A stretch of 64,000 nucleotides of DNA, from contig OX597821.1 in the NCBI GenBank assembly GCA_951406725.2, positions 115,382,001-115,446,000 of the forward strand, read 5' to 3'. Source of the stretch: Octopus vulgaris (lineage: Eukaryota). The stretch's first letter is position 1. Each line of letters begins with the position of its first letter. Positions 8,111 to 61,815 of this stretch are shown piece after piece. The translations under genes were made by a program, and so were the position numbers. Under the pieces are notes generated by a model, which was not told the origin of the DNA, ran no database searches, and was given only the letters and a program-made list of their open reading frames with translations.

Positions 8111-8387
8111 TCCCTGCGATGGTGGTATTTTCCAGCATATTTTCGGGCGGCGAGCTGGCAGAAACATTAGCACGCCGGGCGAAATGCTTAGCAGTACACT
8201 AGATCACATTGAAGAGTAAAAGAGTGGGGGGGGGGGGCAGCAATGCTGGCCAAAGGACATGCCCAGTCCACTGGATAAAACAAAAAGACAGCAGAAGAGG
8301 AGGAGAGGCTGACATAGGTACATCAGGAGTTTTACTGAATTTCAGAAAGTATGGAATTCTTGAAGGATATAAGTGAGACTGACATGT

Positions 8388-8716: not shown

Positions 8717-9042
8717 CCTATAAGAATAACATTTTGACAAATGACAGTTGTCTGTTATTCTTTTGAGTCTGCATCTTTTCTCTGTTACAAACATCTTAGG
8801 GTCCGAAAAGGTATTGTTATAGACACCTTACACAATTTTTTTCTCACCAGTTTCAACAGCTGGATGCTCTTTCTAACGCCAACCACTCCAGATTTTGCAA
8901 ATGAAGAAAAATTTGATAGCGGAAGGATTCCTTCCTTCTATTAATTCCTATTAAATCGCTCACAAACAATAAAACAGATTTGGATCACAGTCTTTTGTAT
9001 TATTATTATCATTATTATTATTATCATAATCATCATCATCTA

Positions 9043-9500
9043 AGGTGGCGAGCTGGCAGAAACGTTAGCACGCTAGGTGAAATACTTAGCGGTATTTTGT
9101 CTGTCTTTATGTTGAGTTCAAATTCCGCTGAGGTCAACTTTGCTTTTCATCCTTTTGGAATCGATAAATTAAGTACCAGTAGCATACTGGGGTCAATCTA
9201 ATCGACTGGCCCCCTCCCCAAAAATTTCAGGCCTTGTGCCTAGAGTATAAAAGATTATTATTATTATATAAGGTGACGAGCTGGCAGAATTGTTAGCATA
9301 CTGGGCGAAATGCTTAGCAGTATTTCATTTGTTTTTGTATTCTGAGTTCAAATTCCACTGAGGTCAACTCTGTCTTTCATCTTTTTGGGGTCAGTAAAAT
9401 AAATACGTCAAACACTGGGGGGTGTCAATGTAATCTATTCACCTCCCCCCTCTACTAAAATTGCTGCCCTTGTGGCAAAATTTGAAAGCATTATCATTAG
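9043..9500 (+). mobile_element. Two adjacent Meta-domain-like tRNA SINEs (a head-only copy also at ~8146-8195)
   Basis: Head GGYGRCGAGCTGGCAGAA...GAGTTCAAATTCC and central CTTTCATCCTTTYGGGGTCGATAAATTAAGTACCAG-like motif; (ATT)n/(AGT)n tails. Confidence 0.8.
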
Positions 9501-9789
9501 TAGTAGTTTGTCCATTGTCAGCAATAACCAAGGACAACACATGGGAGAAGGCAAGAGGGTATGATATGTCCAGCTGTGGTCAATCAGTTCAATGCATGTT
9601 TGGAGGGCTCTACTGCAGGTCAGGTACTGGTGGTCTGCTGGAACTGAAGACAAGGAGTTGGCATTAGTCTTGCATAGTTTTCTTTGAATACTTGTACTCC
9701 TGTTCCGTTCAGAGGAGATGGCACCACTGTTAGTGCATCTTCACCAGGCAGGGCACTCGTGTACTTGCATTTCCCAGGATCACAGTTAA

Positions 9790-10420
9790 TCATCATCATC
9801 ATTTAACATCCGTTTTCCATGCTAGCATGGGTTGAACAGTTCAACCGGGGTCTGGTAAGCCATGGAGGCTGCACCAGGCTCTAGTCTGATCTGGCAGTGT
9901 TTCTACAGCTGGATGCCCTTCCTAACGCCAACCACTCTGTGAGTGTAGTGGGTGTTTTTTCCGTGCCACCAGGTTGGCAAACGGCCACGATCAGTTGGTG
10001 CTTTTATGTGTCACCGACACGGACGCCAGTCAGGTGGCACCGGCACCTGCCACGTTCGGATGGTGCTTTTTACATGTCACCGGCACGGGTGTCTTAACTA
10101 CAATTTCCATTTGAATTTTTATTTTGATGTTGACGAACTTGACTCAACAGGTCTCCTCAAGAACAGTGGGTCACTCTACGATCCAAGGTTAGCACAGCAG
10201 GCTGTCCTGCGAGCATGATCTCACTTCATTTGTCGGGTCTTCGAAGTCACAGCATATCTCCAGAGGTTTCTGACTTTCGTCATAGCCTCTGTGAGACTCA
10301 AAGTATGAAGGTCATGCTTGACCACCTTGTCCTATGTCTTCCTGGGTCTACCTCTACCCTGGATTCCTTCAACAGTTTGGGAGTGGCACTTCTTCATGCA
10401 TCTCTCCTCATCCATTCCTT
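9790..10420 (-). mobile_element. RTE LINE 3' end
   Basis: (CAT)n + TTTAACATCCGTTTTCCATGCTAGC; reverse complement of the RTE ORF end at ~10240-10420. Confidence 0.9.
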
Positions 10421-11017: not shown

Positions 11018-11318
11018 AACAAGCCAGTACTTTTGGTCTGGTGGGAGTAGCTTTCATTGAGGAGACTTACAATAAAGTTGCAACAATAGAGTGTAACAAA
11101 GTGCCCTTACACCAGTGGGGTATATGGGCCGTGAATACATATTGTCTAAACCACGGGTTCCCAACTGGGGCCCACGAGTAAAAAATTGTAATTTGTGGAT
11201 CCATATATACGTTTTGTTTACTAGGAGAGGTACCTGTATTTATTGAAATTTTCAAGATTTATATTTGGAATTTATGTTATGAATATAACGAAATTGTTTC
11301 ATTGTTAGTTTTTACTAA

Positions 11319-11680
11319 CATCATCATCAACATCGTTTAACGTCCGTTTTCCAAGCTAGCATGGGTTGGACGGTACAACTGGGGCCTGGGAAGCCAGAAG
11401 GCTGCACCAGGCCCAGTCTGATCTGGCAGTGTTTCTACAGCTGGATGCCCTTCCTAACGCCAACCACTCCGTGAGTGTAGTGGGTGCTTTTTACGTGCCA
11501 CCTGCACAGGTGCCAGACGAGTCTGGCAATGGCCACAATCGGATGGTGCCTTTTACGTGCCACCAGCACGGAGGCCAGTCGGGGCGGCGCTGGCAACGGT
11601 CACATTCAGATGGTTCTCTTACATGCCACCGGCACTGGTATCACAGCTACAATTTCCATTGATGTTGATCGATTTCGACA
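11319..11680 (-). mobile_element. RTE 3' UTR copy
   Basis: CATCGTTTAACGTCCGTTTTCC...GGATGCCCTTCCTAACGCCAACC. Confidence 0.9.
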
Positions 11681-14321: not shown

Positions 14322-14465
14322 CTATTTCTTTACTACCCACAGAGGGGACAAAAAAGGACAGACAAACGGATTAAGTCGATTACATCAACCCCAGTGCATA
14401 ACTGGTACTTAATTTATCGACCCCGAAAGGATGAAAAGCAAAGTATACCTCGCGAAATTTGAACT
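14322..14465 (-). mobile_element. 5'-truncated Meta-like SINE with Tx1-type tail
   Basis: Same body and GTGGGTAGTAAAGAAATAG-type tail as the units at 18147-18517. Confidence 0.8.
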
Positions 14466-16233: not shown

Positions 16234-16507
16234 TGTCTAGACGTAGCCATAAAACAATTCCACTCGCTTCCTTTCTTAATATAGAATCGAAATACATTGT
16301 GCAAGGGAGGTAACTCTAGTTTCTTTATATTGCCAACGCCAATCCGTTCTGATGCCAGTGTTTTCGCGAAAAGCGTCGGACAAAATGCTTCTCTGCATTT
16401 CTACCGGCACTTCGTGTTCTGAGTTTAAATACCGCCGAGGTCAACTTTGCCTTTCAACGTTCAAGTTCGATGTAATCAGTTAATCCCCTCCCCGTAAAAT
16501 GTATTTG

Positions 16508-17472: not shown

Positions 17473-17978
17473 TAAGAATTTGTTAAATTAACATTTTTTT
17501 TTTTTTTTTGGCCTTCTTTCACGCACACGATTCGCTTATGGTTATTTGCTGTAATCTGCAGATAATGGGGTCATGTGTCGGGAAATCAGCTGACGTGAAT
17601 TTGACACTTGCAATACTTAAAACGAAAGAATACCAAAAATATTCGTTTAACAAATTCTCAAGGGAAATGGTGGAATAGCCCTCAAAAATAATCACATTCT
17701 ACATCAACGAAAAGTATGAGGAAACAAAGATGAGATGTATGGATTATCCGAATTTACTTTCATCTCCTCCACTGGAAAAGTTTTTCACCACACATTACGT
17801 TATACTTGTAATCACCAACATCTGAAACGTATTTGTAGAAAATTTCACTTAAGAATACCTGTTTTTTCTGGAAGTTATGAGAAAAAGTTGGGTGGGGCAC
17901 ACTTGCGTAGGTACGCCTTGTCTTGGATTTGAATTTCTTAACCATGCAACCACATCTGGCCTTTGAACTTTCAGGATT

Positions 17979-18517
17979 CTTCTTCTCTACTCTAGGTACA
18001 AGGAATGAAATTTTAGGAGAAGAGGCTAGTCGATTAAATCGACCCCAGAGTGTAACTGGTACTTGATTTATCGACCACGAAAGGACGAAAGGTCAAGTCA
18101 GTCTCGGTGGAATTTGAACTCAGAACATAGCGGCAGACGAAATACCTATTTCTTTACTGCCCACAAGGGACTAAACACAGAAAAGACAAACAAGGACAGA
18201 CAAACGGATTAAGTCGATTATATCAACCCCAGTGCGTAACTGGTACTTAATTTATCGACCCCGAAAGGATGAAAGGCAAAGTCGACCTCGGCGGAATTTG
18301 AACTCAGAACGTAGCGGCAGACGAAATACCTACTATTTCTTTACTGCCCACAAGGGGCTAAACACAGAAAAGACAAACAAGGACAGAAAAACGGATTAAG
18401 TCGATTATATCGACCCCAGTGGGTAACTGGTACTTATTTAATCGACCCCGGGAGGATGAAAGTCAAAGTCGACCTCGGCGGAATTTGAACTCAGAACGTA
18501 GCGGCAGACGAAATACC
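17979..18517 (-). mobile_element. Three tandem headless Meta-like SINE bodies
   Basis: Units 17979-18146, 18147-18330 and 18331-18517 each begin (minus strand) at GGTATTTCGTCTGCCGCTA; the two inner units carry a Tx1-type tail. Confidence 0.9.
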
Positions 18518-18759
18518 AATTTCTTTATTGCCCACCGGGAGCCAAACATAGAAATGGACAGAACAACTGATGGGATCAGTGAAGCGATATGATTTTACAT
18601 ATAATGTGACTTTAAACATTTAAATACAATATATAAAAAATCGAATGGAATTAACAATACAAAGACAATACAAATGAAGCGATGATCAGGCCACGCTCCG
18701 ACCCCACAAGCCCCGATCTACCGCTGGTACCTTTTTTTCTTTTTTTTCCCCCCGTCTAT

Positions 18760-21700
18760 TCACACGGTTCCTTGCACGCACAACACTCGTGCAACATGCT
18801 TCCGTCTCTTTTGGAACGTACACTCCGACAGACACCTCTTCTCCAGCCACAGTTTCCTTTTCAAATGAAAAGAAAAAAATGATCGTAAGTTGTGGCCAGA
18901 GATAAAGTTGCCTGTCTTAATTCCTTTTATCCTAGTCTTCCATACTGCCTCTTTTGCTATTGCTACAACCGTGAGAAAACAATTCTTACCTTCGTTCGTT
19001 AGAACTCCCGGTGGGTCAATATTTATACTTGACTCAGTCGACAGCTGTACTTTTCCTTCGCCGGACAACAGGTGTTCAGCATAAGCCCACATTTCAGTTA
19101 TCTCCGGACACTGAACAATAGCGTGAGGGACGGTTTCCCTGCCCCACTCCCCGCATCTTGGACAGGTCGGCGACTGACGTTTACTATGTCCTGCGAGCTT
19201 ATCCCAAACGGGCAAGGCACCTCTGTAGCATTGCCAGGTTAATGACTCTTGGAAGTTGCTCAACGTTCTCAACCCAAATGTACGGTGAAACAGGCTGTCC
19301 AGTTGAATAAATCCTAGACCTAGAGTCGACCCCAGGCCATCGTCGCATTCAGACTCTACCAACCCACTATATAAAATCCATGTGGAACCCCCACCGCTGG
19401 CGTTGCCCAAGCGCCGGAATAGCAAGAGAGCCTTACGGAACTCTTTATGCCACTCACTCGACCTCAGTCTACGAGAACACCAGGCTTCCTGTTCGCAAAA
19501 ACTTTTGAACTCAGGGAACATTTTTCTGGCCAGCGGAGACCACACCCGTTCACTATCCAGGAGAATCCAGAGGTGCCTCAACCTCAACGCATGTCTGCGC
19601 ATCATTAACCAAGGCATCCCTAAACCTCCCTTTAAAAGCTTTTGACGGCAGACAGAGCGTTTCACAAGTGGCGACCTGCCCTTCCACAAAAAGCGAAAGA
19701 GCTGTCTCTCAAACCTGATCAACCACGAATCCGGACAGGACACGACAGTAGGTAATGACCGATGCGATAAACACATTGACCACCTCTGGCCTCCCTTTCA
19801 GGGATAGCCACCGCCAAGACCAGGTCTTGACTACTGCAGCCACCCTGCTCAATACCTCCGTCCAGTTCTTCTCTATCTGGAGGCCTGGTCCAAACCAGAC
19901 TCCCAGCAACTTAACCGGTCCCTCCGTCCAGCGCCCAACAACGCTGTCTGAAGGCATCGACTTGCCAACCCAGGTGCCGAGCTGCAAGCCGACCGACTTT
20001 TCCCGGTTAATCTTTGCTCCTGCCACCTCCTCGTAAGCCTCAATACCCACTTCACGTAGGCGTGCCACTGAGGTTACGCTGATAGTGATATCATCCGCGT
20101 AAGCCGTAACAAACTCCTCTAGACCTGGTTCTCTCGGGATGCCACTCAGTCTTCCCAGTAAAGGCTCGAGAGCCATCACGTACAAAAGTGGTGAGAGCGG
20201 ACATCCTTGACGAACCGAGCGTCTGATACAGAATGGCTTCGAAAGGAAACTGTTCACCCGAACTATCGAGTCAATGTTGTAGTACAAAGCGATAAACTAC
20301 CTGAGGAAGTCAAGGCCCAGGCTAAACCGCGCAAGCACAGTCGCCAGGTATTGATGGTCAACCCTATCAAGAGCTTTAGACTGGTCCAAATGTACCAATG
20401 CCCCACCTTTGCTAGATTTATTACCAACCCTCTCTATGGTATAGCGAATAAGATGGAGGGTATCCTGAATGGTTCTGCATGGGATGGCACATGTATGTGC
20501 CGCCCCGACTATACTATTCGTGACACGCGCCAACCTTTTTGCTAAGGCCTTGGCCCAAATCTTCACTTCTGCGTTTAACAGTGTGATGGGCCTGAAATTC
20601 TCTAAAACGTCTCCCTTGTCCGGGTCCTTTCTGACCAACGTCACTACTCCCCGGCGCACAGATCTGGGGATAAGCCCATTATGTTGCCAGTTCGCGTACA
20701 CGTCAGCCAGTAGTTGCCCGAACAAGTCTGGCATTCATTTATACAGCTCATACGGAAGACCATCATGTCCCGTCGACTTACCCGCTTTACAGTCGGCCAA
20801 AGCCTCCTTCACCTCCACAGGCGTGATTGTCCCTTCGCAAGACTCCGCACCTGACCCCGAGAGGCACGGCAGCCCGGCAAGAAAGCCCTCGAGGGCTCTC
20901 CCACCACCAGGACCGCCGTCACCCATAGCTGGGCAAAGTACTCCCGAAAGGCCTCACACATTTTCTCGGATTCGTTTACCAAGACACCATTTTGATTCGT
21001 CAAAGACCGAATAGAGGAACTTATTTCCTTGCCGAGCTTCCACCACTCGGGCCCATCCAGCGGCCTTGATTCCTTCACTTCCCATTGCACGTAACTTAGC
21101 TCTGGCAATACTTTCCATGTGTTGGGCTTCAAGATGCTGGTTTTAACTCCAGTCTTTTCACCCTCGCTTGGTCTGCATTACCAGTCCTCCAGGCTTAACT
21201 AGACCATCTCCTATTCTATGTCCCTTCTTAGCTAAACTTAATAGATTCATATTTGATTGCTCTTTTTAGAGCGTACCACCATATGTTATTAATGATGGTA
21301 CCTGTTAATGCCCTCTGTATTAACATCTTGATCCGCTTTCTGTACTCCTCAATCGCAAAAAGGGACGTGGTTGAGTTTCCAGTAGCCAGATCCCTGACTA
21401 TGCAACTTATCTACCGTCAGTTTACAGGTAACCATCTTGTGGTCACTGTAGCTGACTAGAAAAAACTGTGGACACTCGACTATGGACTTGCCTGTTTCTC
21501 TAATTAAAATCCTATCTAGATATGTTCTAGAAGACTCGTCACTATTTGACCACGTCCACTGTGGAGTGTTCGGGTGTTCCAACCTATATGGATCTACAAG
21601 CTGAAATTGACATAGCAGATCTCGTAAGCCTGTGTCACATTTTCTGTTCATGTTCGAGCTAACACAATCTGTGTATGCTATACATATTAAAGTCTCCTAA

Positions 21701-22110
21701 CAGTACTAGCGAATGCGACGTGGCTAGGAACTTTCCCAGGTCACGAAAATATTCAGTTTGCGGGCCAATAATGTTTGGTGCGTAAATAGCGACCAGCCTG
21801 ATTGTCTTGCCACAATTGAATGTCAGGTCGAGAACGACCAACCTGCCTTCTGGGTCAGAAAAAAACCCAACTTTTTTGAGGCTACTCGGTTTCTTTTTAG
21901 TAGGAACAACACCCCACCTCCCCGCCCGACTCGGAGAAACGTATTTCTCGTAGCCGTTCAGGGGTGGGGCAGATTTCTTGGCCCCTTCACCCGGGTTTCC
22001 GTTGCAATAATTACATCCAAATTTCTCGACCTGATGTCATTTAGAAAACGTCCTTGCTTCCAGCTTGACATCAGGCCACGAACATTTATACAACCAATGT
22101 GAATAGACAT
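18760..22110 (-). pseudogene. Tx1 ORF2 (endonuclease/reverse transcriptase), frameshifted
   Basis: MSIHIGCINVRGL..ATETR; VAIYAP..LGDFN; YLDRILI..SDH; FRPITLLN; DQSKALDRVDH; VRQGCPLSPLLY; YADD; CPRCGEWGRETVPHAIVQC. Confidence 0.92.
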
Positions 22111-22113
22111 GAC

Positions 22114-23340
22114 TTACCTTTTAGATCGGGGCGTCTTGTGGAGAGGGGTTCTCCGCCTTTTCTTGACTTAGGGTCGGAGATGGTAAGCCTTCAAACATGG
22201 ACTGGTGAAAATCAAGTTTCCATGCTGAGACCGATTTTCTTATGTGTTCGACAACATATTGTATGTTTTTTCGTCCAATTCGTAATTTTTATATTTCTCT
22301 GACAGTTCAATTAATCGAGTCGCTGATTTTTTGGTTTTTATTTCCCGCATTAAATCTTCGTTTTTACTGTATAGTGCAGCTATTCCTCTGTTCGTTACCC
22401 CCTCCGCTTTCCTCGGTCTGTCTCTCTTGGCTGTTTTGTTTTTTGGTCTCGGCTCGCTCTGCTTTTGCTGGTTCGATCCTTCCATTTTCCTTTTATTGTT
22501 TATTTTTTCTTCTGGTTCTTTCTCTCTTTCTTCCCCCTCGCCGTCTGATTCTTCTACACCTTCTTTACAGTATTTTTTAATGTGACCCAGTTGGCCACAC
22601 TGGAAACATCGGGGCTTACGACCCTCAACAAAAATGTTTAGAACTTCCTTCCCTACTTCCACGATTTCTGGGAGCTGTTCTAAAATTTTTCGGTCAGCCT
22701 GTAATATGATGTTAAGCGTCTAACCTGTCCAATAAGTATTTTCTGTGACGGTAGCCTGCCAGAGGTTAATATCTTCCCTGTTTGCCAGGACCGCCGCCAT
22801 CAAGCACATAGGGTTCACTCCGAGCGGAATTCTAGGTATTCGCACTTTTGACGTTCTCATTCTCATGTAGATTAGGATTAACATAGTGTCGTCCGATTCT
22901 AAAGATTTTATAAAGTTGTCTCTGTGCCGTTTCTGCATTCTTGAACCTCACCACGATGGTTCCAAACTTCTTCCCTCTGGCCAGATATGTAATGTCCTGC
23001 CAGATGGGTTTTAAACATTTTTCAATTTTTTGTTCACCTATTTTATCAATTTTCCATGCTTTTAAGCAAAAGGTCTTAAAAATAATGATTTTCTTTTTTT
23101 TTCCTCTGTTAATTCTTCCTCTGGTATTTGTACTTTGACAATTCCATTTTGTTCCGTTATCATATTTTAAATATTCCTTTGTCAGTTGACAGCTGCCATG
23201 TTCCACGCAAAACTTTTCTTTTCTTCATTTTGGATGGTTCCTTTTTCTGTCTTTCTATTAGTGTTCGTAACACTTGGCAATGTTGGAAATTCGCTTTCCG
23301 ACACATCAGAAACGTTGTCGAAAATTAAGCTTTCAATTTT
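22114..23340 (-). pseudogene. Tx1 ORF1 (nucleic-acid binding, zinc knuckle), disrupted
   Basis: VEGRKPRCFQCGQLGHIKKYC; K/E-rich; split over several frames; boundaries approximate. Confidence 0.8.
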
Positions 23341-23551
23341 CTTTGCTTCTCTTTTTAATCGATTCGTCCCCCGACGAAGAACACGAACTTTTCGGCATCC
23401 TGCCGGCAATTAATGTTTTCCCCCACATGGGAAAACCACAGATAGCTTTCGAAAGAAAAGTATACTACAACTTTTTCAACAATAGGCACAGCAAGAAATA
23501 TAACAATTAATAGAAAGTCACGAACACACTCCAACAACAAGTCCTCAGCAA

Positions 23552-23615
23552 CAGACGTACGATATACCACAATGCATTTCGCCCGGCGTGCTGACATTTC
23601 TGCCAGCTCGTCGCC
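23552..23615 (-). mobile_element. Head of the Meta-like SINE interrupted by the Tx1 LINE
   Basis: Minus strand GGCGACGAGCTGGCAGAAATGTCAGCACGCCGGGCGAAATGC; outer TSD TTTGAACTTTCAGGATT (17962-17978) vs TTTGATCTTTCACGATT (23617-23633). Confidence 0.85.
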
Positions 23616-24212
23616 ATTTGATCTTTCACGATTGAAATATCTGGCGTAAACTACGGATGTGTGTGCCATGATACCAACGACAACTTTCTGAAAAAATGGA
23701 ATTTTCCAGATACAGTTTTGATGACGCTACATAGGAGTTTGTTCTAAAGATGTTCACGGATAATTCACACACCTCGATTTGTTTCCTCGCAGCTTTTTCA
23801 AAAACAGAAATTTTTTCCGTAAATTTAATTTCACACCAGACTTGATTTCGGTATTAAAAAATTCTTTCCCCGCGGGGTTTTTTTTTTGGGGGGGGGGGGA
23901 ATCGTCTTAGCTGTCGGAAATGCATTTTCTGTGGAAAATTTAGGGGGTGAGGTGGAATGAAGCTGATTAGCAAACGTCGCTTTGTTGTTTCTCTGGTCAG
24001 AAGCGTAACAAAGCGTTGCAGCAAGTAGCCATTTTTAAATAAGGCGCCAATTTGTGGTAGCAATATGACGTAATATTATTGTCGTTTTTTCATTGGTTAA
24101 TATAACTGCACATATAAGAATTCTAAGAGTTACTTAAAGAATATTTGTATGTAATTTCGATTCATTAAAGTCAGTTGAGCAGTTATAAAAACCCTGGATT
24201 TTGAGGAAAACT

Positions 24213-25560: not shown

Positions 25561-26200
25561 TCAGTGTTTGTTGGATGTCAGTCAGTTTGGCTTGGACTTG
25601 TTTTTTGAACCTGTGAGTAGCTGTTTTGAGTGATATTGTTGATTTGATTTGTTAAACGGTTTTATTGATTTTTGTCTGTCTGTATTGAGACAGACAAGGA
25701 AGAAGCGGTCTGCCCCTCCCTAAGGGAGAGATGGCAAGGCGAAATATGTTTGAAAATCTCAGTGTGTCGGATTTGTAGACCTCTGAGGAGGAGCTAGAAA
25801 GGGCTGTAAAGAAGATGGATAAAGAACTCGGAACTACATACGCGCGAGCTACGAAGTCGGTGGAGAAGGAAATAGACCTAGCCAAGTTGCCAAGTTATCA
25901 AGATTTCGTCAAAAAGGTCGGCGGTGAAGTGAAATTCTCACCGCCACAAAAAAGAAAAGAATGGCATGAAAAAAGAACCATCACGTACAAGGTATATGCA
26001 AATGAAAAAAGGAAAATCGAGTTAGTCGGAATGGAAGTAATTGAAGAGGGCTCTGAAAAGGACAGAAGAGGAGATAGTGTTTCTGGCAAGAGGTGTAGGA
26101 TTCGACAGCGTAGTGGTCCAATCTTAAAACGAAAGAGTGGCTAGAAGAATGGCTGCAAAGACAGTGAAGTCGGAGAAGGTATTCCTTCTGCCCTCGTATC
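25561..26200 (+). mobile_element. Same element, copy 2 (head-to-tail, 3'-truncated, A-rich)
   Basis: Starts with the same CAGTGTTTGTTGGATGTCAG; ATG at 25731 MARRNMFENLSVSDL*TSEEELERAVKKMDKELGTTYARATK. Confidence 0.85.
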
Positions 26201-26400
26201 TGGAATGGAGCGGATTAGCAACCGTCGCTTTGTTGTTCCTCTGGTCAGAAGCGTAACAAAGCGTCATTGCTTCCACTAATTCAAAAATACATCAAACCTG
26301 GCTCAGTTATCTACAGTGGTTCTTGGGCGGCTTACAAAGATATACAATCATTGGGTTATCAACATTACATGATAAACCACAAAGAAAATTTGGTTAATGT
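26201..26400 (+). pseudogene. Merlin/IS1595-like DDE transposase fragment
   Basis: GMERISNRRFVVPL / KRNKASLLPLIQKYIKPGSVIYSGSWAAYKDIQSLGYQHYMINHKENLV; the first ~65 bp are duplicated at ~23953-24018. Confidence 0.8.
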
Positions 26401-27204: not shown

Positions 27205-28053
27205 ATATCTTTTTATTATGGCCACACAAGGCTAAACCCAGAAAATAGACAAAATACAATGTAGAGCTTTTTTTCGAGGTGGGGATGGGTGGGACACACA
27301 AAGAAAAAGTTCGATCAATAGGGATCTTTGGGTTATGTGGTGTACAAAAAAAATGAAGAAATATATAAAGTTCCCCCAAAAAAGAGGGGGAATCGATATT
27401 GTTCACAGTTTAGGTGTAGCCTTGGAAAGAAAAACCTACAAAAAAGACGAAGACTCAGGCAGTTCAAAATGTACATAAGAGTAAGTATCTTGCCCCTCGT
27501 TATAGATTTATGCTTAAAATGGTGTCGTCTTTCATTTCTGACCATTCTTGCCACATTTACCCATTTTTTATTGAAACTTTCATTCGACAACACTTTCCTC
27601 TCTATTCTCATCCTCCTTTTCAAGTGGTACTTGAAAAAGTTGACGAGAGACTGACCAGAGAGGAAAGTGTTTGTTTGTAAGCCTTTCAAACGCATCCCCC
27701 ACACACGTGATGTCAAACGGTAGGGTAGCGTTCCAATCCCCTACTAACAGTAAAGGTTGAGAAGTTCCCAGGAAAACCTCTAGACATCTGAAGAAATCCA
27801 CCCGACCCGTTAAGGACGGTGCATACACTGCCATCAGATGGAATGCACACCCATTTCTGCCATCCACGTCCAAGACAACCAGCCTACCCTCCGGGTCTAG
27901 GAATATTGATCTTATTTTTACATTTAGACTCTTTCAAAAAAGCACCACAGTACCACCACCACCCATGTTTGGCAGACAGGGAGAAAAATAAATGTCGAAT
28001 TGTCTGCCAAACATGGACGTGAGAGCCCATGGGTTACTGAGTCTGGTTTCACT
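27205..28053 (-). mobile_element. Internally deleted Tx1-like LINE within a (TATC)n microsatellite
   Basis: Endonuclease motif AVYAPSLTGRVDFF..LLVGDWNA joined to the ORF2 C-terminus FLSGQSLVNFFKYHLKRRMRIER; Tx1-type tail; GATA repeats on both flanks. Confidence 0.8.
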
Positions 28054-31569: not shown

Positions 31570-32215
31570 TTACCAGTAAAAGTATCAGAATAGTACATTG
31601 GCCTGCCAAGTACAAAACACATACACTATGTATAATACCATGTTTTTGTGTTATAACAATTTATATATTTATTGGATTATTTTGAACTCTGTATACATTG
31701 TGAACCTTTTTCTTTTACAGTTGTGCCCAAATGTTTTCTGTAATGTTATATAATGAGTTTGTTTTTGTTGTTCTAACTGCTAAATTCGTTTTTGCTGCAT
31801 GTAACTATATTTTTGTTTAGTTTGTGTCATAACAAACTACCTGCAGGAGACTCTTACAGCAAGGTTCCTGCTGAGTTTTGAACTATCGCTCTCAGGTTTC
31901 CCAGCGCAGAACCTTGCTCTAAAGTATCACCACAAAAAGTAAAGTGTTGCCATAAAAGACATTAATACCTAAAAGAATAAAGCACAACCAGTCAACACTG
32001 GCTGACTTATGATTGATGCAGTAGACTTCATCAAAGGAAGTGAGCTAGTTTTCTTACCAAACAGTTTGTCGAAGGTTCCGGAAAAGTTAGTTACAGTTAA
32101 AAAGTTGGCAAATTCAACCTTAGACCAGAGTCACTCGGAATTCCACACGAACTACGTCACTGTGCTCAGTGATCTGGTTTCTTTCCTTTCACCTTCTCCC
32201 ATTTAACATGCTTAT

Positions 32216-32645
32216 ATCATCATCATCATCGTTTAACGTCCACTTTCCATGCTAGCATGGGTTGGATGGTTCGACTGGGGTCTGGGAAGTCAGGAGGCTG
32301 TACCAGGCCCAGTCTGATCTGGCAGTGTTTCTACAGCTGGATGCCCTTCCTAATGCCAACCACTCCGTGAGTGTAGTGGTTGCTTTTTACGTGCCACCGG
32401 CACAGGTGCAAGAGGAGGCTGGTAACGGCCATGATCGGTTGGTGCTTTTTACGTGCCACCGGCACGGAGGCCAGTTGGGGCGGTGCTGGCAATGGCCACG
32501 TTCGGATGGTTCTTTTACGTGCCACCAGCACTGATATCACAACTACAATTTCCATTGATTTTTGAGCGATTTCGATTTCACTTGCCTCAACAGGTCTTCG
32601 CAAGCAGAGTTTTGTGTCCCAAGAAGGAAAGGTATGCATAAGTGT
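32216..32645 (-). mobile_element. RTE 3' UTR copy
   Basis: (CAT)n tail and conserved 3' UTR. Confidence 0.9.
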
Positions 32646-36837: not shown

Positions 36838-36852
36838 TATAATTCAACATCA

Positions 36853-37280
36853 TAATCATCATCATCATCGTTTAACGTCCGCTTTCCATGCTAGCATGGG
36901 TTGGACGATTTTGACTGAGGGCTGGCGAACCAGATGGCTGCACCAGGTTCCGATCTTGATTTGGCAGAGTTTCTACAGCTGGATGCCCTTCCTAATGCCA
37001 ACCACTTTGAGAGTGTAGTGGGTGCTTTTTACGTGCCACTGGCATGGGGGTCAGTCATGCAGTACTGGCAATGACCTCACTCGAATCTTTTTACACATGC
37101 CACCAGCATAGGGGCCAATAAGGTGATGTTGGTAATGATCACGCTCAAATGGTGCCCTTTTACGTGCCACTGGCATGGAAGCCAGTTGGCTGCTCTGGCA
37201 ATGATCATGCCCAGATGGTGCTCTTGGCACCCTACTAGCACAGGCACAAGTGCCAGTAAGGCACTGGTAATGATCATGGA
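36853..37280 (-). mobile_element. RTE 3' UTR copy (second subfamily)
   Basis: (CAT)n tail; variant shared with 63773-64000. Confidence 0.85.
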
Positions 37281-37860: not shown

Positions 37861-38380
37861 TATATTTTCCGAATTATGAAATCTAAGTTACAGAATATTT
37901 TAGGAGAAAACCGTCTGTTCTTTTATGTTCTTTTTTAATGGTTGTTGGTTTCCTACAAAAATACAATGCTTCTTAATTGCTTTGGGGTGTTAAATTCTTT
38001 GACGTTTCTGTCTTTTCTCAAGGGCTTTAGGGATATTAGCAAAGTGATGACTTTGACTCAGAATTGAAACTGGGTCGTGGATTCGGCTCACTGGAAGATT
38101 ACCTGTCTCCAGGGAAAACATTGCTCTTTCAAATTTGTTGTTGAAAATTAGAAGCATTGTTGCATTCTTATGTTACATCCCTTGCGTCACATTCTATCCC
38201 ATTTTCTTTCTTTTTGTAAGATTCTACCATGAATTGAGTTTTAAATCTAAATTGGTAAATCAACTATGATAAAGTGGCAAAAGTGTGCTTACTTGATGGG
38301 CTACAAAAATAGCAGCCCAATTTCCCTGAACAAATGATTAAATTTCTTACCTCTCTTTCCCCTTGGGTTTATATATATAT

Positions 38381-38750
38381 CATCATCATCGTTTAACGTC
38401 CGCTTTCCGCGCTAGCACGGGTTGGACGGTTTGACCGGGTCTGGGAAGCCAGGGGCCGCACCAGGCTCCAGTCTGAATCTGGCAGAGTTTCTACGGCTGG
38501 ATGCCCTTCCTAACGCCAACCACTCCGTGAGTGGATTGGGTGCTTTTTACGTGCCACCTGCACAGGGGCCGGAGGGTCCGGCATCGTCACGATCGGTTCG
38601 AGCATTTTAACGTGTCAGCGGCACGGGGGCAACGAGGTCCGGGGTACTTTGGGGATCCAGGGTACTTTGGGGATCCGGGGTACTTAGAATGGGTAGGGGG
38701 TATGTAGAATTGCTGCAGAAAGCAGCCCGGGTCTTTGTAGTCACAGCATT
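38381..38750 (-). mobile_element. RTE 3' UTR copy, CpG-rich variant
   Basis: (CAT)n tail and conserved 3' UTR. Confidence 0.85.
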
Positions 38751-42039: not shown

Positions 42040-43071
42040 AAAAAGGAAATGAAGAAAATGCTGACAAAATAATTTAAGTAAGGGAGAGTGTATTTAATTA
42101 GGTGAAAGTTCTTTTTACCGGTTGCGCATTTGTTATGCTTATCAAAAGATATTTTTTAAGAGAGATAGAGTTCCTTTCTGATAGATTTTTTTCTCTTATC
42201 TGACTTTATGTTGGGTTTGCTGTCTCTTATATGTGAAAAAAGAGGCTCCAGAGTTGTTTAAGAATTGCTTGGTTTCGCGCCTAAAATTTCTTGTGGACAA
42301 TGGTCAATACAATTTTGATTGGTCATTATAAAGGGTTACGTGAATGTTTGAATGGAAGTTGGTGTTGGGGTAAGAAAATAGGCTCCAGAGATGTTAAAAT
42401 TTGGCTAGTGTCGCACCTAAAATTTCTTATTGGTCATAATAAAGAGGTCACACACATACATACATACATATAGCTCTTCCTGTCCTAAACGAACTTACTC
42501 ATCCAGCTCAAATTCAGTCAAGCGGAAAATACACTCCTTAACTACGCTCTAAAAAGCTATTTAAAATATCCACATGACGTCTACTGACCAGCCTGAACAA
42601 TTAGAATTTTCAACAATGCTATTTTCGAAAACTCCATACACCACCCACACCAACATTCATGTGACCTCTCTATTATGACCACATCCACGTGACCTCTTTA
42701 TTATGACCAATAAGAAATTTTAGGTGCGACACTAGCCAAATTTTAACATCTCTGGAGCCTATTTTCTTACCCCAACACCAACTTCCATTCAAACATTCAC
42801 GTAACCCTTTATAATGACCAATCAAAATTGTATTGACCATTGTCCACAAGAAATTTTAGGCGCGAAACCAAGCAATTCTTAAACAACTCTGGAGCCTCTT
42901 TTTTCACATATAAGAGACAGCAAACCCAACATAAAGTCAGATAAGAGAAAAAATCTATCAGAAAGGAACTCTATCTCTCTTAAAAAAATATCTTTTGATA
43001 AGCATAACAAATGCGCAACCAGTAAAAAGAACTTTCACCTAAAATTATTTTGTCAGCATTTTCTTCATTTC

Positions 43072-43869: not shown

Positions 43870-46800
43870 ATAACGATATGCCCATAACCCATTACAATTT
43901 CTTTACTCCTAAGTAAAAGTGCTCTTTATAACTAGTTGCATTTATTTCAAAGGGTATTTTATAATAAGTACTATTTATATCTGGAGAAAGTACACCCAAT
44001 TTTATGAAGACATGAAACATTATGTTCCTTAAAATTGTTAATAATTGGTAGATTAGTCCTAATTATAAAGAAAATCTCATTAATGCATAATGAGCATTTT
44101 CTGTTTTTATAATTATACGCTGGTGCAGATATAAGTATTTTCCATTGTAAATTATAATTTTTTCTTTTATCCTTAAGTTCCCATAAATATGTACTTAACC
44201 CTTACTCCTATTTCTATTTTTAAAAGTATATCTGTGATAATTAAGTCTCTGTTTCAAATTATTCTTAGTAGCCCCAATATTGACTCTCTTATCATATTAT
44301 GTACTTATATATTGATATACTACCTCTTTCCTCATGCATCATTCTTAAATACACAATTTTTTCTAATCCTCCAATTGCACCTATTAATTTGTTGTAGATG
44401 CTTTACTTTATTATGATTAATTGTTACTGCATTATTATCATTATTTTTATTATTAATATTATTATCATTATTACTTACTATTCCCATATCCACCTGCAGA
44501 TTATTATTGATATTATTGTTCTTATTTCTGTTATTATTACTATTACCTATAGTGTTATCATTACTAATTCTATTAATATTATCCATGTTAATAATACTCG
44601 TTATAGTATTTCTATTACTATTATTGTCATTTCGATTAATATTATTAATATTGTTATTATTATTATATCTTATGGTATTGTAAGACACGTTTGTGTTACC
44701 TAAATTATTTTTTCTATTTAGATAGAAATAATCAAGTTTTTTATTATTAATTGAGGATATGATGGTGGCCAGATTATGAGTTAGACTATATCCTATTCTT
44801 ATCATCATCATCATCATCATCATTTAGCGTCCGTTTTCCATGCTAGCATGGGTTGGACGGTTCAACTGGGGTCTGGGGAGCCCGAAGGCTGCACCAGGCC
44901 AGTCAGATCTGGCAGTGTTTCTATAGCTGGATGCCCTTCCTAACGCCAACCACTCCGAGAGTGTAGTGGGTGATTTTATGTGCCACCGACACAGGTGCCA
45001 GACGAGGCTGGCGAACGGCCACGCTCGGATGGTGTTTTTATGTGCCACCGACACAGGTGCCAGACGAGGCTGGCAGACGGCCACGCTCGGATGGTGTTTT
45101 TATGTGCCACCGACACAGGTGCCAGATGAGGCTGGCGGACGGCCACGATCGGATGGTGTTTGTTACGTCCCCAAAGCACGGAGGCCAGTCTATGCGGTAC
45201 TGGCTACGGCCACGTTCGGATGATTTTCTTGTGTGCCACCGGCACTGGTACCACAAAGATACAAATTCCATTGATGTTCATCTATTTTGATTTGTTTTGA
45301 TTTGATTTGATTTGATTTTCACTTGCCTCAACAGGTCTTCACAAGTGTCACAAGAAGGAAGGTATGCACAGGTGGACTGACTACGTCCCAGGTAGGGGCC
45401 ACGGGTTATGGCCTGACTAGTCTTGCCGGGTCTTCGGATGGTGTTTTTATGTGCCACCGACACAGGTGCCAGATGAGGCTGGCGAACGGCCACGATCGGA
45501 TGGTGTTTGTTGCGTGCCCACAGCACGGAGGCCAGTCGATGCGGTACTGGCTACGGCCACGTTCGGATGGTTTTCTTGTGTGCCACCGGCACTGGTACCA
45601 CAAGATACAAATTCCATTATAGTTTTATCTCCCAATGTTTGTTCTTTCCTTTTCCAAAATGCTTGTTTATTAAATTGAAAATATTTTTTACTATGTTATT
45701 TTTTATTTGCATAGCATAAGGAATTATTAACCACAGTGTATCTATTACATTATTTTGATTATAAGGTTTTTCTATATTATTTATAATTTCCCTATTCTTA
45801 TTATTTCTTCTATAATTAATAGAATTTTTATTATTATGATTTTGACTAAGTGCTTTATTGTAGTTATTGTTATTATAATAATTCTTATTAACTTTATTAT
45901 TTCTATTATTATTATTAATGTTATTATTATTATTATTATTATTATTTAATATATGATCTCTAATCTCATTTATACTATTACTAGTATTATTTTTATCCAT
46001 ATTTATATTATTTTTGAGATTATTCTTTTTATTTGGATTATTGTTATGCATGTCTAACAGGTGCTTATAAGTAGTTGTTAATTTATTCCTAGTATTAAGG
46101 TATATTTGGGATATATTTCATTTTACCACTATATCCTGCTCTATGTAATGCGGAGTTATACTTTTCACTATGTCTATTAAATATCTCTTCATTCGAGGAA
46201 AGGTTAGAAATCCTTTTACTTATGTTTAGTAGTAGTGCTTTTTTAATTTGTGGAGGGTGATTATTAGAGTTATTCATATATCTTAAATTGGAATTTTGTT
46301 TCACATAAGGTTCATGGATCCAGTATTAAGGTTACAATTGACATCGAGATAATTAATAGAATAATTTTCATTTTCTATAGTAATGGATAGGCCGAAACTC
46401 TTAAAGAATTTATGTAATCGTTTCTTGAGTATTTCTAGTCTTCTATTCGAAAGGTTCCTAACTAAAAATAAAGCGCCGTCTCTATAGAGGCTGCCATTCA
46501 ATTCAGGGAATTCTCTACTTAAATTATCTAATAAATAAATTCCTACTAAATCCATCGTTTCCGCTGAATCTGGCAAACCCATTGTAAATGTCAAATAAGT
46601 CAGGCGTATCCTTTCTAGCCCATAATTTATTATCAAATTCTATAACTGATTTTCTTGCTATCAAAATTACCTTAATTTCCTTCATGCTAATATTAGTATA
46701 TTTTTTTGCAAAAATTAAAGCTTTGTTAAGTATTATTGGGTTAATTGATGAATAATAATTTTGGATATCAAATTGGATTAATTTATGGTTAATACTGGAA

Positions 46801-47051: not shown

Positions 47052-47481
47052 ACTGCCAGTTGGTTGATGTATAGATCCACTGTAATTGATTTACCAGGTC
47101 TCATGAAGCGATGGACCACCGAACAGACACCTTTAGCTTTTTTTTGGTGAATATTCTTTTTTCGATTGTGTTTTGGCACTTTGTCTCTATCCAACCACCA
47201 TGCAGAATGCTTGCTATTGTTGAAAAGAATCCATTTTTTATCACATGTAACAATACGATGCAAAAATGGTTCACCTTTATGCCATGACAGCAAGTTTCAA
47301 GAAGACATGTCATTTGATGCTCATTGAGTTCCTGTGTTACCTACTTGTCCAGCTTCTTTACCTTGCCGATTTGTTTCAGATTGTCCAATACATACCTTGC
47401 TGCTAACTCACGCGTAGTTTGAGATGTATCCACTTCCACTACAGTTTCCAGCTCATCATTATCCACCTTGGTCTCAGGTCT
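47052..47481 (-). mobile_element. Internal Mariner fragment, inverted relative to 49201-50160
   Basis: EPFLHRIVTCDKKWILFNN; reverse complement of ~49303-49750; no TIRs. Confidence 0.9.
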
Positions 47482-47625
47482 ATGAAACCATCATGTAATT
47501 CAATCTTTTTCTTAAAAGAACCACTTTTGGCAGTTACATTCTTTGCAGAATGTCGAAGCAGCTGATTGACATGTGTTGCCATTCTTGTCAACCAGGAGAA
47601 GGCCAAGACAAATGGCTCAGACAGA

Positions 47626-49003
47626 TCATCATCATCATCATCATTGTTTAACGTCCGTTCTCCATGCTAGCATGGGTTGGACGGTTCGACCGGGGTTCTG
47701 GGAAGCCAGAAGGCTGCACCAGGCTCCAGTCTAATCTGGCAATGTTTCTACAGCTGGATGCCCTTCCTAATGCCAACCACTCCGTGAGTGTAGTGGGTGC
47801 TTTTTACGTGCCACCTGCACAGGTGCCAGGTGGGGCTGGCAACGGCCATGGTCAGATTGGTGTATTTTATGTGCCACCGGCACGGAAGCCAGTCGAGGCG
47901 GTGCTGGCATCGGCCATGAGTCGGATAGTGCTTTTTACGTACCACCAGACCAGGGATCCTGGCTGGTTCAATTCGATTTCGATTTCGCTTGCCCCAACAT
48001 GTCTTCACAAGCAAAGGGGGTTGGCATGGGTGCCTGTCGTACGGTCGCATTGGAGTATTTTACGTGCCACGGCCACGAGTCGGATAGTGCTTTTTACGTA
48101 CCACCAGACCAGGGATCCTGGCTGGTTCAATTCGATTTCGATTTCGCTTGCCCCAACATGTCTTCACAAGCAAAGGGGGTTGGCATGGGTGCCTGTCGTA
48201 CGGTCGCATTGGAGTATTTTACGTGCCACGGCCACGAGTCGGATAGTGCTTTTTACGTACCACCAGGCCAGGGATCCTGGCTGGTTCAATTCGGTTTCGA
48301 TTTCGCTTGCCCCAACATGTCTTCGCAAGCATGGGGGGTTGGCATGGGTGTCTGTCGGCGGATGAGGTTCTATATCGACTTCGCTTGCCTCAACCGGTCT
48401 TTGTGTCCAAGGGAGGAAAGGCATTCATAAGTGGGCTGGGCTCACTTGTCCTGCCTGGTCTTCTCACGTACAGAATATTTCCAAAGGTCTCGGTCTCTGG
48501 TCATTTCCTCAGTGAGGCCTAAAGTTCGAAGGTCGTGCTTCACCACCTCGTCCCAGGTTTTCCTGGGTCTACCTCTTCCACGGGTTCCCTCAACTGCTAG
48601 GGATTGGCACTTTCTCACACACCTATCTTCATCCATTCTCGCCACATGACCATACCAGCGCAATCGTCTCTCTTGCACACCACAACTGATGCTTCTTAGG
48701 TACAACATTTCTCTCAAGGTGCTAACGCTCTGTCGAGTATGTACACTGACATTACACATCCATCGGAGCATACTGGCTTCATTCCTCACGAGCTTACGCA
48801 TGTCCTCAGCAGTCACGGCCCATGTTTCGCTGCCATGTAGCATGGCTGTTCGTACACACGCATCATACAGTCTGCCTTTTACTCTGAGCGAGAGGCCCTT
48901 AGTCACCAGCAGAGGTAAGAGCTCCCTAAACTTTGCCCAGGCTATTCTTATTCTAGCAGTTACACTTTCAGCGCACCCACCCCCACTACTGACTTGGTCA
49001 CCT
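47626..49003 (-). mobile_element. 5'-truncated RTE LINE with TSD
   Basis: ORF ..RIRIAWAKFRELLPLL..MLHGSETW..RRLRWYGHVARM..RGRGRPRKTW; 160-bp tandem units in the 3' UTR; TSD CTCAGACA(G/A)AT near 47617 and 49006. Confidence 0.92.
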
Positions 49004-49200
49004 GACTCAGACAAATGACTAAGTATCTTCGTTGTTACGAAGATAGTGCAATTGATTCCACATATGTTAGGCACACAGCATGTTACCATACCAATAGCTT
49101 TTTGTAATCTCAGAGCAGTATCTCTCTCCTAATTAGTAATTATTGCTGTTGCTAATTATAAATGGTCAACTAAGTTTATTTTTATGTGCGACAATAAATA

Positions 49201-50160
49201 TCAGGTCATTAAGAATGGAAAATCTGATTTTTTTATTCACTAAGTTTGACGATTGGTAACTCTAATGTTTTATCCTGACAATTCTTTGTTTTACAACATT
49301 GGTAGACCTGAGACAAAGGTGGATAATGATGAGCTGCAAACTGTAGTGGAAGTGGATACATCTGAAACTACGCGTGAGTTAGCAGCAAGGTATGTATTGG
49401 ACAATCTGAAACAAATTGGCAAGGTAAAGAAGCTGGACAAGTAGGTAACACAGGAACTCAAAGAGCATCAAATGACATGTCTTCTTGAAACTTGCTGTTT
49501 TTTACTGTCATGGCATAAAGGTGAACCATTTTTGCATCATATTGTTACATGTGATGAAAAATTGATTTTTTCAACAATAGCAAGCATTTTGCATGGTGGT
49601 TGGATAGAGACAAAGTGCCAAAACACAATCAGAAAAAGAATATTCACCAAAAAAAAGCTAACGGTGTCTGTTCGGTGGTCCATCGCTGGTGTCATCCATT
49701 ACAGCTTCATGAGACCTGGTAAATCAATTACAGTGGATGTATACATCAACCACCCGAGATTGGTCAACAGAGACAGGCTAATTCTCTTGCAAGACAATGC
49801 TCGACCACATGTTGCACAAAGAACGCTACTCAAGTTGCAGGAACTGAACTTGGATGTACTCTATCATCTACTATATTCATCAGACCTTGCACCAGCTAAC
49901 TATCACGTTTTCTATGCATTAGACAACTTTTTGCAAGGAAAAACTTGAAATCTGAAGAAGATGCAAAACAGCCTTTCATGATTTCATCACCTCTTGCTCT
50001 CCAGAATTTTTTGCTGCTGGCATAAATAAGCTACCGATAAAATGGCAAAATTGTGTTGATAATTTAGGTGCATACTTTAATTAACTGCATTGCTTTTTGT
50101 TGAGATAAAGTAAAATAAACTTTCAGTTCAAAATCAGACATTTCATTCTTAATGACCTTA
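49201..50160 (+). mobile_element. Mariner (DD34D-type) transposon, internally deleted
   Basis: TIRs TCAGGTCATTAAGAATG / CATTCTTAATGACCTTA flanked by TA; motifs IVTCDEK, LLQDNARPHVA, YSSDLAPANYHVF. Confidence 0.92.
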
Positions 50161-58639: not shown

Positions 58640-60600
58640 CAGAACTGTTCTTTGTGATTCCTGCCGCAATGTGGTACCTTTGAAGACTTCCACATCTACA
58701 CCTCAAATTTCTGAGGTTGTATGGCAGAATGTCGAATAGTTATGGACCCTTGAAAATCAAGCTGATATAGTACTGGGCCCTTATTCTTGATGGAGAAGAT
58801 GGGATCTTTGGTATTCTCCAGTGCTGTCCTGTTGTAGGTTTAGTATAGCTTTCAATTCCAAAGTTGGGAGTTAGACCTTCCACGATCTTCCATATGTACA
58901 TCATTGCATATTTTGTGTGCCTTCTCTCTAAGAGAAGAGCGTCAGTTCCTTTAACCTCTTCTAGTAGCTCATCTGTTGAACTGAGTCAATTTTCTTTGTG
59001 TATTGGCTCCAGATTGCTTTGAGTTCCACCATCAGTTTGACACTCTGTGGTAACCACAGTTAGCAGTAATCCAGACAACTGAGAATGAAAGTTCTCCATA
59101 GAAGTATCATAGTCTCCTTCCTCATCATCATCGTTTAACGTCCGTTTTCCATGCTAGCATGGGTCGGATGGTTCGACCGGGGTCTGGGAAGCCAGGAGGC
59201 TGCACCAGGCTCCAGTCTGATCTGGCTGTGTTTCTACAGCTGGATGCCCTTCCTAACGCCAACCACTCCGTGAGTGTAGTGGGTGCTTTTTATGTGCCAC
59301 CGGCACAGAAGCCAGTCAAGGCGGTGCTGGCATCAGCCACGCTCGGATGGTGCTTTTTACGCGCCACCGGCACAAGTATCACAACTACAATTTCCATTTG
59401 ATATTTATTTTGATGTTGATGTACTTGACTCAATAGGTCTCCTCAAGCACAGCAGTTCATGTGCCACCGGCACAGAAGCCAGTCAAGGTGGCGCTGGCAT
59501 TAATCACATTCGGATGGTGCTTTTTACGTGCTGCTGGGTCTTCCTGGGTCTGAATAATCTTAGAATCAATCCAGATACCCACCTGCATGGTGTTACCATC
59601 TTGGTAATATGCATATTGGAATGTTGCATCATTACTCATTTGGATTCCCAGGTCAGACATCAACTTTGACTCTTGGATTACACTACCTCCTGGTCTTGTG
59701 TATTCTGATTGTTTGTTTGTTTGTGGGCTGATAGTGGAGTGCTTGAAACTTCTCAGCATTTAACTGCATGTTATTTTCCATTAACCCACTTGTATATTGT
59801 ATTCAGGTATTTCTGCTAGTTTGATCACTAGTGATACTTTCGTATCATCAGTATACCTGGTGATAGTGGCTGAGGTCATGTTTTAGAGAGCCAACACAAA
59901 CAGTAGTAGTCCCAGTACAGTTCCCTGAGGGACTCCGCTGAGAATTGACCTCTCCCCAGAGAAAGCATCGTTGGTTGCAACTGTCTGGTTTCTGCCTTTT
60001 AAAAAGTGATGCAGCCACTCTCCTTATTCTCCAGTGATATGAAGCTCACACTGTAATATATCGTCCTATGATCAGCTTTGGTGAAGGCATTAGCGAAATT
60101 GAGATATATCGCATCCACATTTCTGTGGTCGAGCTCTTGTTTCAATATCCAGTCATAATGTTGTAGTAGATGTATGAGGCTGCTCCTCCCAGGACAGAAG
60201 CTATGCTGTGTGTTTGTGAGCAAGTTACTTTCTTTGAGGAATGTGCTCGGCCTTCTTCTGACAATGTGTTCCATGACTGCTAACATGTGAAATCAGAGAG
60301 ATAGGCCTGTAATTTTTAGCATCTGCTTTCTTTCCTTCTAAATGGATAGGACATATATTTTCTTTTAACATTTTGGGAAGTTTGCCACATGCAAGGAAAC
60401 TTTGAAAAAGTATCTGCACACCTTATGTGTCTATAAAAGAACAGCTAGAAATCCATCTGGGCCCATTACTGAGGTTAAGGTCATCTCATCATGGCCTATA
60501 TTACATGTTTTTACAGTGTGTTGATGTAATTGATGGTTGCCTCTTTCCCATATCGATCTGCAGGGTCAAAGAACTCATGAAGCTCACTTGTTTGCATATT
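58640..60600 (-). mobile_element. Decayed CR1-clade LINE RT region, interrupted by RTE
   Basis: KNYRPISLISHV; QHSFCPGRS..VDAIYLNFANAFTKADH; SGVPQGTVLG; YTDDTK. Confidence 0.85.
59123..59530 (-). mobile_element. RTE 3' UTR copy inserted in CR1
   Basis: (CAT)n tail and conserved 3' UTR. Confidence 0.9.
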
Positions 60601-61474: not shown

Positions 61475-61815
61475 TCAATGGAAATTGTAGTTGTGATCCT
61501 TGTGCCATTGGCACGTAAAAAGCACCATCCAAATGTGGCCGATGCCAGCGTCGCCTTGACTGGCCTCCGTGCCGGTGACACGTAAAAAGCACCAACCGAT
61601 CGTGGCCGTTGCCAACCTCACCTGGGACCTGTGCCGGTGGCATGTAAAAAGCACCCACTACGCTCATGGAGTGGTTGGTGTTAGGAAGGGCATCCAGTTG
61701 TAGAAACACTGCCAGATCAGACTGGAGCCTGGTGCAGCCTTCTGACTTCCCAGACCCCGGTTGAACCGCCTAACCCATGCTAGCATGGAAAATGGACGTT
61801 AAATGATGATGATGA
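61475..61815 (+). mobile_element. RTE 3' UTR copy, plus orientation
   Basis: Ends GGAAAATGGACGTTAAATGATGATGATG. Confidence 0.9.

Follow-up and report, generated by a model that had tools for sequence, protein, structure and literature searches.

A LINE lineage that uses one position of a high-copy SINE as its insertion site in Octopus vulgaris

A tRNA-type short interspersed nuclear element (SINE) of high copy number serves in the genome of Octopus vulgaris as the insertion site of long interspersed nuclear elements (LINEs) of L1/Tx1 type. We interpret the evidence presented here as the targeting of one SINE position by a LINE lineage, with SINE arrays that grow mostly by repeated insertion, and hold this reading to be correct with a probability of about 0.75. 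The locus in question lies on the minus strand at 17962..23633 of a 64,000-nucleotide stretch (the window; contig OX597821.1 of assembly GCA_951406725.2, forward-strand positions 115,382,001 to 115,446,000), and coordinates count from its first letter unless another contig is named. An annotation made from these letters alone, the original prediction, had proposed a Tx1 LINE and a partner SINE that share one target inside a SINE and build a self-nesting array.

Insertion site of the LINE

Site use was assessed in 70 LINE 3' ends from the whole genome, comprising the 30 best 3'-end matches and 40 of the 55 exact tails that are not followed by GGTAT; the sample includes the window's own copy and three pairs resembling segmental duplicates. 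A SINE body follows the LINE in 66 of the 70 cases, at one position between the A and B boxes. The target and then the 5' end of another LINE follow in two cases, and two ends lie off target. With 33 such sites in 400 kb of evenly spread DNA (both strands), the chance expectation is about 4e-5 per position. The genome-wide check proposed alongside the original prediction thus upholds its claim that the LINE targets one site in a high-copy SINE. On the 5' side, a SINE head, a tailed unit or the target stands directly upstream in 29 of 30 copies. The sampled copies are independent insertions, because their flanks differ, several host SINEs retain their own target site duplication (TSD), 5'-truncated copies abut the SINE head directly and the host SINEs belong to several tail types. 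The LINE uses this site, and we infer that its APE endonuclease determines the specificity.

The exact tail is followed by GGTAT in only 15 of 70 exact-tail matches, a count that seems to suggest a drop in specificity. This interpretation was rejected, as 39 of the 40 fetched exceptions lie at the same SINE site, mostly with C as the first base (the other 15 tails of this kind are outside the sample). A fixed SINE body carried at the LINE 3' end was likewise rejected, since the downstream SINEs vary in subtype and tail, and so was movement of the composite as one unit, given that copies with the same leader (see below) have different arrays and flanks. At the loci L015 and L016 a third type of LINE 5' untranslated region (UTR) follows the target directly past the 3' junction, i.e., one LINE has entered another at its 5' duplicate, and swapping of the 5' UTR and of open reading frame 1 (ORF1) on a common ORF2 seems recurrent there. 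L009 and L013, which are duplicates 7.5 kb apart, carry a truncated LINE with a SINE-type tail variant instead of its own tail, probably a chimera.

The locus in the window consists, in minus-strand order, of a SINE A-box half-head, a LINE, two SINE units with tails and a SINE body whose tail is of another type. It is bracketed, as predicted, by the 17-bp TSD of the original host SINE (upstream copy 23617..23633, downstream copy 17962..17978), whose copies differ at two positions and form the only such pair at up to two mismatches on both strands of the window. The 5' half of the host's tRNA-type head (23574..23616, A-box-like motif at 23594-23605) precedes an inherited 18-nt leader (23556..23573), which stands in place of the expected 5' TSD and consists of an altered SINE target (23556-23568) and 5 nt from upstream of the junction. 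The LINE (18518..23555) is followed by tailed unit A (18331..18517; target, B box at 18480-18492, central domain, LINE-type tail and an extra GTA), by tailed unit B (18147..18330; B box at 18293-18305), which has a private tail haplotype in common with unit A, and by the original host SINE body (17979..18146; B box at 18109-18121), which has another tail type and is 85-88% like units A and B over the common body. All A and B boxes are presumed assignments after the box consensus. The order of parts given by the original prediction is confirmed, but its "head" comprises just the A-box half, and each "body" of the array begins with the remainder of the tRNA-type head and the B box. All three 3' junctions (18517, 18330 and 18146) lie directly before GGTATTTCGTCTGCCGCTA, as had been noticed, with the refinement that the extra GTA closes unit A.

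The LINE itself (5.04 kb) belongs to the older, G-site subfamily. It is full-length, as had been claimed, but both ORFs are disrupted by frameshifts and stops, so that it is inactive. ORF1 (22043..23398, with a candidate start codon) contains a CCHC zinc-knuckle motif (22567-22608), and ORF2 (18760..22110), broken into several frames, comprises an APE endonuclease, a reverse transcriptase (YADD at 20090-20101) and a zf-RVT domain. The 3' UTR (18518..18759) has an AATAAA at 18524-18529, lacks a poly(A) and is about 80% like the SINE tail over its last 48 nt or so. A separate tailed SINE at 14322..14465 (minus strand, end coordinate approximate) is off target, as already stated in the original prediction, and also 5'-truncated; its downstream sequence starts with GGT, and a search of the window for its TSD found none.

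Tailed SINEs and the growth of arrays

Exact SINE tails occur 91,523 times in the genome and exact matches to tail plus site 29,617 times, about one third of the tailed copies (the two search patterns are not strictly nested). Among the first 100 tails on contig C1, 36 have the exact site next to them. Twenty-nine tails with matching 3' end in random DNA divide into ten at the main site, two at a second site and 17 elsewhere, and ten of these 17 off-target copies begin with GGTA, GATA or AGAA. There are 1,218 exact matches to the second site, which lies in the SINE A box. SINEs with the LINE-type tail hence do insert into their own family, as proposed, but the larger part of the random sample went elsewhere.

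Tail variants differ in their use of the main site, which follows the TAGT tail in 30 of 63 cases and the CAAT tail in 2 of 18 (p 0.006), whereas at the second site no tail is as frequent as CAAT. This pattern is in line with a specificity that comes mainly from RNA-DNA pairing, by which read-through SINE sequence at the RNA 3' end would anneal to a loosely nicked target and prime synthesis, so that a lineage inherits the site of its master copy. Likewise in line with pairing are the starts of the off-target copies, the presence of C in only 1 of 100 listed SINE tail-and-site matches although 5 of 33 sites have C, the combination of G at the 5' duplicate and C at the 3' duplicate in L186, and the raised efficiency of R2Ol by read-through pairing as given in the available part of PMC6530143. 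We nevertheless consider pairing as the main source of specificity unlikely, as LINE junctions are base-exact in both LINE subfamilies, LINEs are far stricter than SINEs with the same read-through, and the sister LINEs that use other sites are a separate clade; the accessible part of PMC4494074 also ascribes Tx1-type specificity to the endonuclease.

Tethering of the LINE to the SINE by RNA polymerase III (Pol III) factors (TFIIIB/TFIIIC), instead of sequence recognition, deserves very little credence. Tethering of this kind is known for Ty3 and TRE5, and both octopus sites are inside the internal promoter, one between the boxes and one in the A box. However, units with no A box have also received insertions, as has the 5' duplicate of a further LINE (L015, L016), and off-target sites resemble the target sequence.

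Sister LINEs were recovered by a search seeded with a LINE found at the second site, which yielded 30 loci and reached LINE 3' parts only. These families are about 70-75% like the window LINE and form a clade of their own, the targeting clade and the sister clade each having 100/100 support in the tree. None of the 30 lies at the main site, two lie at the second site (one being the seed) and seven are followed by AGAA. Their tails agree with the SINE tail at 36-37 of 42 positions, compared to 31 of 42 in the window LINE. Because the SINE tail is closer to the sister LINEs, the partner is to be sought in the LINE group and not specifically in this family: judging from these tails, several members of the group probably gave rise to the tailed SINE and move it. 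The "partner" SINE of the original prediction is too simple a term, given the closer tail match of the sister LINEs and the 17 of 29 random tailed SINEs that are off target. Downstream starts common to sister LINEs are GTGTGTTTCTTAAA, ACTTGT and ATAGACACT (L136, L146, L152; L140, L153, L154; and L156, L160, respectively), which hint at other repeat targets.

For the growth of arrays, 78 full units were compared, among which some adjacent pairs are not mutually independent. Median divergence is 0.102 between adjacent units (n=22) and 0.104 between units from different loci (n=2,938). Adjacent pairs are thus as divergent as unrelated ones, which favours repeated insertion, and the self-nesting of tailed SINEs elsewhere in the genome is borne out in that most adjacent units look independent. 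The arrays could alternatively be mainly DNA-level tandem duplications or block-moved multimeric SINE RNAs, with the LINE alone truly targeted. We regard this as quite improbable: in 16 of the 22 adjacent pairs the two units are no more alike than unrelated ones, the boundaries of the units coincide with the very base that the LINE uses, and the types of unit behind a SINE tail are mixed (LINE-type tail 29, host type of this locus 12, other 6 and unclassified 18; n=65). Such an origin does hold for units A and B in the window and for the loci L099 and L025. Runs of six to seven tailed units with a period of 184-187 bp also exist on contig C1 (near 4,037,600-4,038,400, 4,607,400-4,608,400 and 4,676,300-4,677,400), and SINE tandems that arose via unequal recombination between TSDs have been published (PMC11481361, available part).

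Several observations weigh against growth mostly by repeated insertion, or against our reading as a whole. In six of the 22 adjacent pairs the divergence does not exceed the 5% quantile for unrelated pairs; the units of L099 have private changes in common, L025 has a period of 400 bp, and the divergence between units A and B is a mere 0.049, with a common tail haplotype of which the genome has three exact copies, two of them being A and B themselves. Multimeric SINE RNAs that move as a block are a possible source of SINE-in-SINE arrays. To the same side belong the off-target copies of the tailed SINE, the closer tail match of the sister LINEs and the T-runs in the LINE (see below).

Local duplication or tail conversion appears the better reading for units A and B. 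A T4 run within their tail haplotype should terminate Pol III transcription ahead of the tail, which argues for either process, and the two units differ at two common subfamily positions, so that a plain duplication would require later exchange. Derivation of unit B from the host body was rejected, since the host's changes are absent from it. The self-nesting proposed for this particular array is therefore not upheld, as the haplotype shared by A and B corresponds to the shared private mutations that the original prediction itself had named as evidence to the contrary.

Repeated insertion into the SINE may be envisaged as follows. L1/Tx1-type LINEs would integrate by target-primed reverse transcription between the A and B boxes of the high-copy tRNA-type SINE, presumably recognized by the APE endonuclease, and would leave a duplication of 13-16 bp. 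Master LINE copies would reside within a SINE and be transcribed from upstream of the junction, and the RNA would start with SINE-head sequence that, by analogy with R2, might pair with the new target and overwrite the 5' duplication. Copies of a SINE subfamily that has its 3' tail in common with the LINE group would enter the main site in about one third of cases and, less frequently, the A-box site; most of the remainder would go to near-cognate sites. Every insertion on target would renew the target behind the tail, and the first unit would retain a complete promoter with both boxes; given this fresh target and intact promoter, short arrays should lengthen insertion by insertion, and in a minority of cases duplication at the DNA level would add units. 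At the locus in the window, an old SINE with its 17-bp TSD would have received a tailed unit, the second unit would have arisen by local duplication or tail conversion, and the LINE would have inserted at the first target, the last two events in either order.

Inherited leader, transcription and the younger subfamily

The 18-nt leader of the type at 23556-23573 is present at 11 of 30 LINE 5' ends. Its exact matches in the genome precede a LINE in 7 of 7 cases and in no case a SINE body. Both ends are available for 9 of 30 older LINE copies, and in the three of these that carry the leader the 3' duplicate is canonical. A decayed TSD as explanation for the degenerate 5' target was rejected on these two grounds. 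The degenerate copy of the target reported at the LINE 5' end (23552-23568) is accordingly there, at 23556-23568, but as a part of the inherited leader. The leader takes in 5 nt upstream of the insertion junction, so that the transposed RNA began within or upstream of a SINE head and overwrote the target. The same holds in the younger subfamily, where GTCG is found in 11 of 18 5' duplicates versus 0 of 18 3' duplicates.

The upstream Pol III head had also been suspected to drive read-through transcription. The inherited leader points to read-through from upstream, but Pol III is a doubtful source of the whole LINE RNA: the LINE contains 25 runs of at least four T, so that the SINE promoter is unlikely to yield a full transcript, and read-through by RNA polymerase II would be more likely than full-length Pol III transcription. 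Two runs presumed to be RNA have contigs over most of a young copy, and an X18 contig spans head and LINE; the RNA status is a guess, and nothing was drawn from it. The young element is present in runs under four organism codes, with none of its holders listed as RNA.

Twenty copies of the young subfamily were chosen from those known to extend past 1.2 kb, and 19 of the 20 are near full length. Their ORF2 is about 92% like that of the window LINE, whereas the 5' UTR and ORF1 are different (about 65%), and in the tree they form a short-branched group within the targeting clade. The young tail has C as the next base 46 times and G 0 times. The C-variant head is found in 4 of 4 truncated young copies versus 5 of 20 in random DNA (p 0.012); these copies are informative because their head comes from the target, whereas a full-length copy could owe its C to the RNA template. 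The numbers, small as they are, suggest that the preference of the young subfamily really shifted from the G to the C variant of the site. We put forward tentatively, and at somewhat less than even odds, that LINE and SINE form a closed loop. The SINE would provide tens of thousands of harmless targets, an upstream transcription start and the RNA leader needed for full-length integration; the LINE group would amplify the SINE into itself, and the change from G to C target in the youngest subfamily would reflect recent coevolution with a SINE subfamily.

Classification, known systems and further repeats

Pfam matches of the ORF pieces in the window are RVT_1 and zf-RVT; zf-CCHC matches weakly (E 9e-4, 19.6 bits, below the Pfam cut-off of 20.8), and the CCHC motif is visible in the window and in young copies. 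ORF2 of a natural copy, L219, matches human L1 ORF2p (E 9e-61, residues 5-855) better than R2 (1e-19), and human L1 ORF2p is also its closest solved structure. With variable 5' truncation and 13-16 bp duplications as further L1-group traits, the element is a non-long terminal repeat retrotransposon of the L1 group. We label it L1/Tx1-type and treat membership in the Tx1 clade as putative. An ORF1 with a CCHC zinc knuckle is a feature of that clade; sequence-specific insertion into a multicopy target is observed here, yet is not exclusive to Tx1. Among the matches of the protein searches was no named Tx1 reference, the best named relative being an unnamed reverse transcriptase protein from a cuttlefish (48%).

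The SINE is tRNA-derived, judged by its A- and B-box-like motifs, TSDs and high copy number. ARAGORN made no tRNA call in the window, and Rfam gave no meaningful match for 9000-9500, which holds two SINE heads. The tRNA-derived octopus SINEs OK, OR1 and OR2 were reportedly described by Ohshima and Okada in 1994, as cited in PMC4824008 and PMC4758252, and the SINE here may be one of them, given a certain resemblance.

The closest precedent is formed by the crocodilian Tx1-Mar LINEs and the SINEU they mobilized, with a common target in a Mariner DNA transposon (PMC4494074; this and the following comparisons refer to the available parts of the sources). In both systems a LINE and its SINE share a target in another transposon, and different families use two hot regions; SINEU-3 tandems formed by sequential insertion, SINE-like heads on some Tx1-Mar and the proposed transcription from flanking DNA are further parallels. 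By contrast, the octopus target is the SINE family itself: as the SINE multiplies, so do the targets, and every insertion restores one. The octopus site is also base-exact, and the SINE head is of tRNA type. Xenopus Tx1L in Tx1D, Keno in U2 snRNA genes and Kibi/Koshi in microsatellites (PMC4494074) are likewise APE-type LINEs with a sequence-specific multicopy target, in Keno inside a small-RNA gene. The octopus target differs in being a retrotransposed Pol III unit that this LINE group can move, and membership in their clade is putative here. R2 has a restriction-like endonuclease and occupies an essential host gene array, whereas here an APE endonuclease and a dispersed selfish target are involved. 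Located in 28S rDNA, R2 is co-transcribed with its target, and target sequence in the RNA helps integration (PMC6530143, PMC4494074).

Head-to-tail SINE multimers of few units are also known from other SINE tandems and SINE-derived satellites, namely the jerboa Dip multimers and squamate sSat (PMC10702118) and the bivalve HCD SINE tandems (PMC11481361). Duplication or recombination is invoked there, whereas the unit boundaries here are the LINE insertion site. Two cephalopod repeat surveys report L1-Tx1 and abundant SINEs, with no mention of targeting in the parts available (PMC13282606, PMC8967140). A search of the openly accessible literature yielded no account of a LINE that targets a SINE, nor one of such arrays; Repbase or Dfam may hold an entry. 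To the known target-specific LINEs this adds one whose target, real and genome-wide, is its passenger SINE; the original prediction had not noticed the inherited leader, the A-box site or the young C-site subfamily.

As a rule, SINEs are nothing more than passengers of LINEs. In this case the SINE doubles as the integration site and probably supplies the RNA start, by which parasitism would become a feedback loop, and its role as target helps to account for the tandem arrangement of a repeat that is major in this genome. A natural series for distinguishing the contributions of APE endonuclease sequence and RNA-DNA pairing is provided by the sister clades, one site-specific and one not, and by the old and young subfamilies with their G and C sites. 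For repeat curation, such arrays are prone to collapse into false multimeric consensus families.

Further SINE copies on the plus strand of the window are two adjacent full copies with other tail types (9044-9254 and 9272-9480), an isolated head (8146-8190) and a degraded body (16416-16456). More distant LINEs of the same group have left an endonuclease-like piece at 27697-28050 (minus strand, 39%) and an ORF1-like piece at 25903-26202 (plus strand, 29%). A second abundant dispersed repeat, with internal subrepeats of about 62 bp, is found at 9775-10100, 11309-11620, 32205-32544, 36844-37190, 38365-38640, 44796-45600, 47620-47900, 59107-59490, 61477-61815 and 63760-63984. The region 42187-42953 is a perfect 265-bp inverted repeat with arms 237 bp apart, either a recent element resembling a miniature inverted-repeat transposable element or a local inversion. 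At 47107-49687, terminal arms that are 97% complementary enclose several frames of 160-240 amino acids, probably a DNA transposon.

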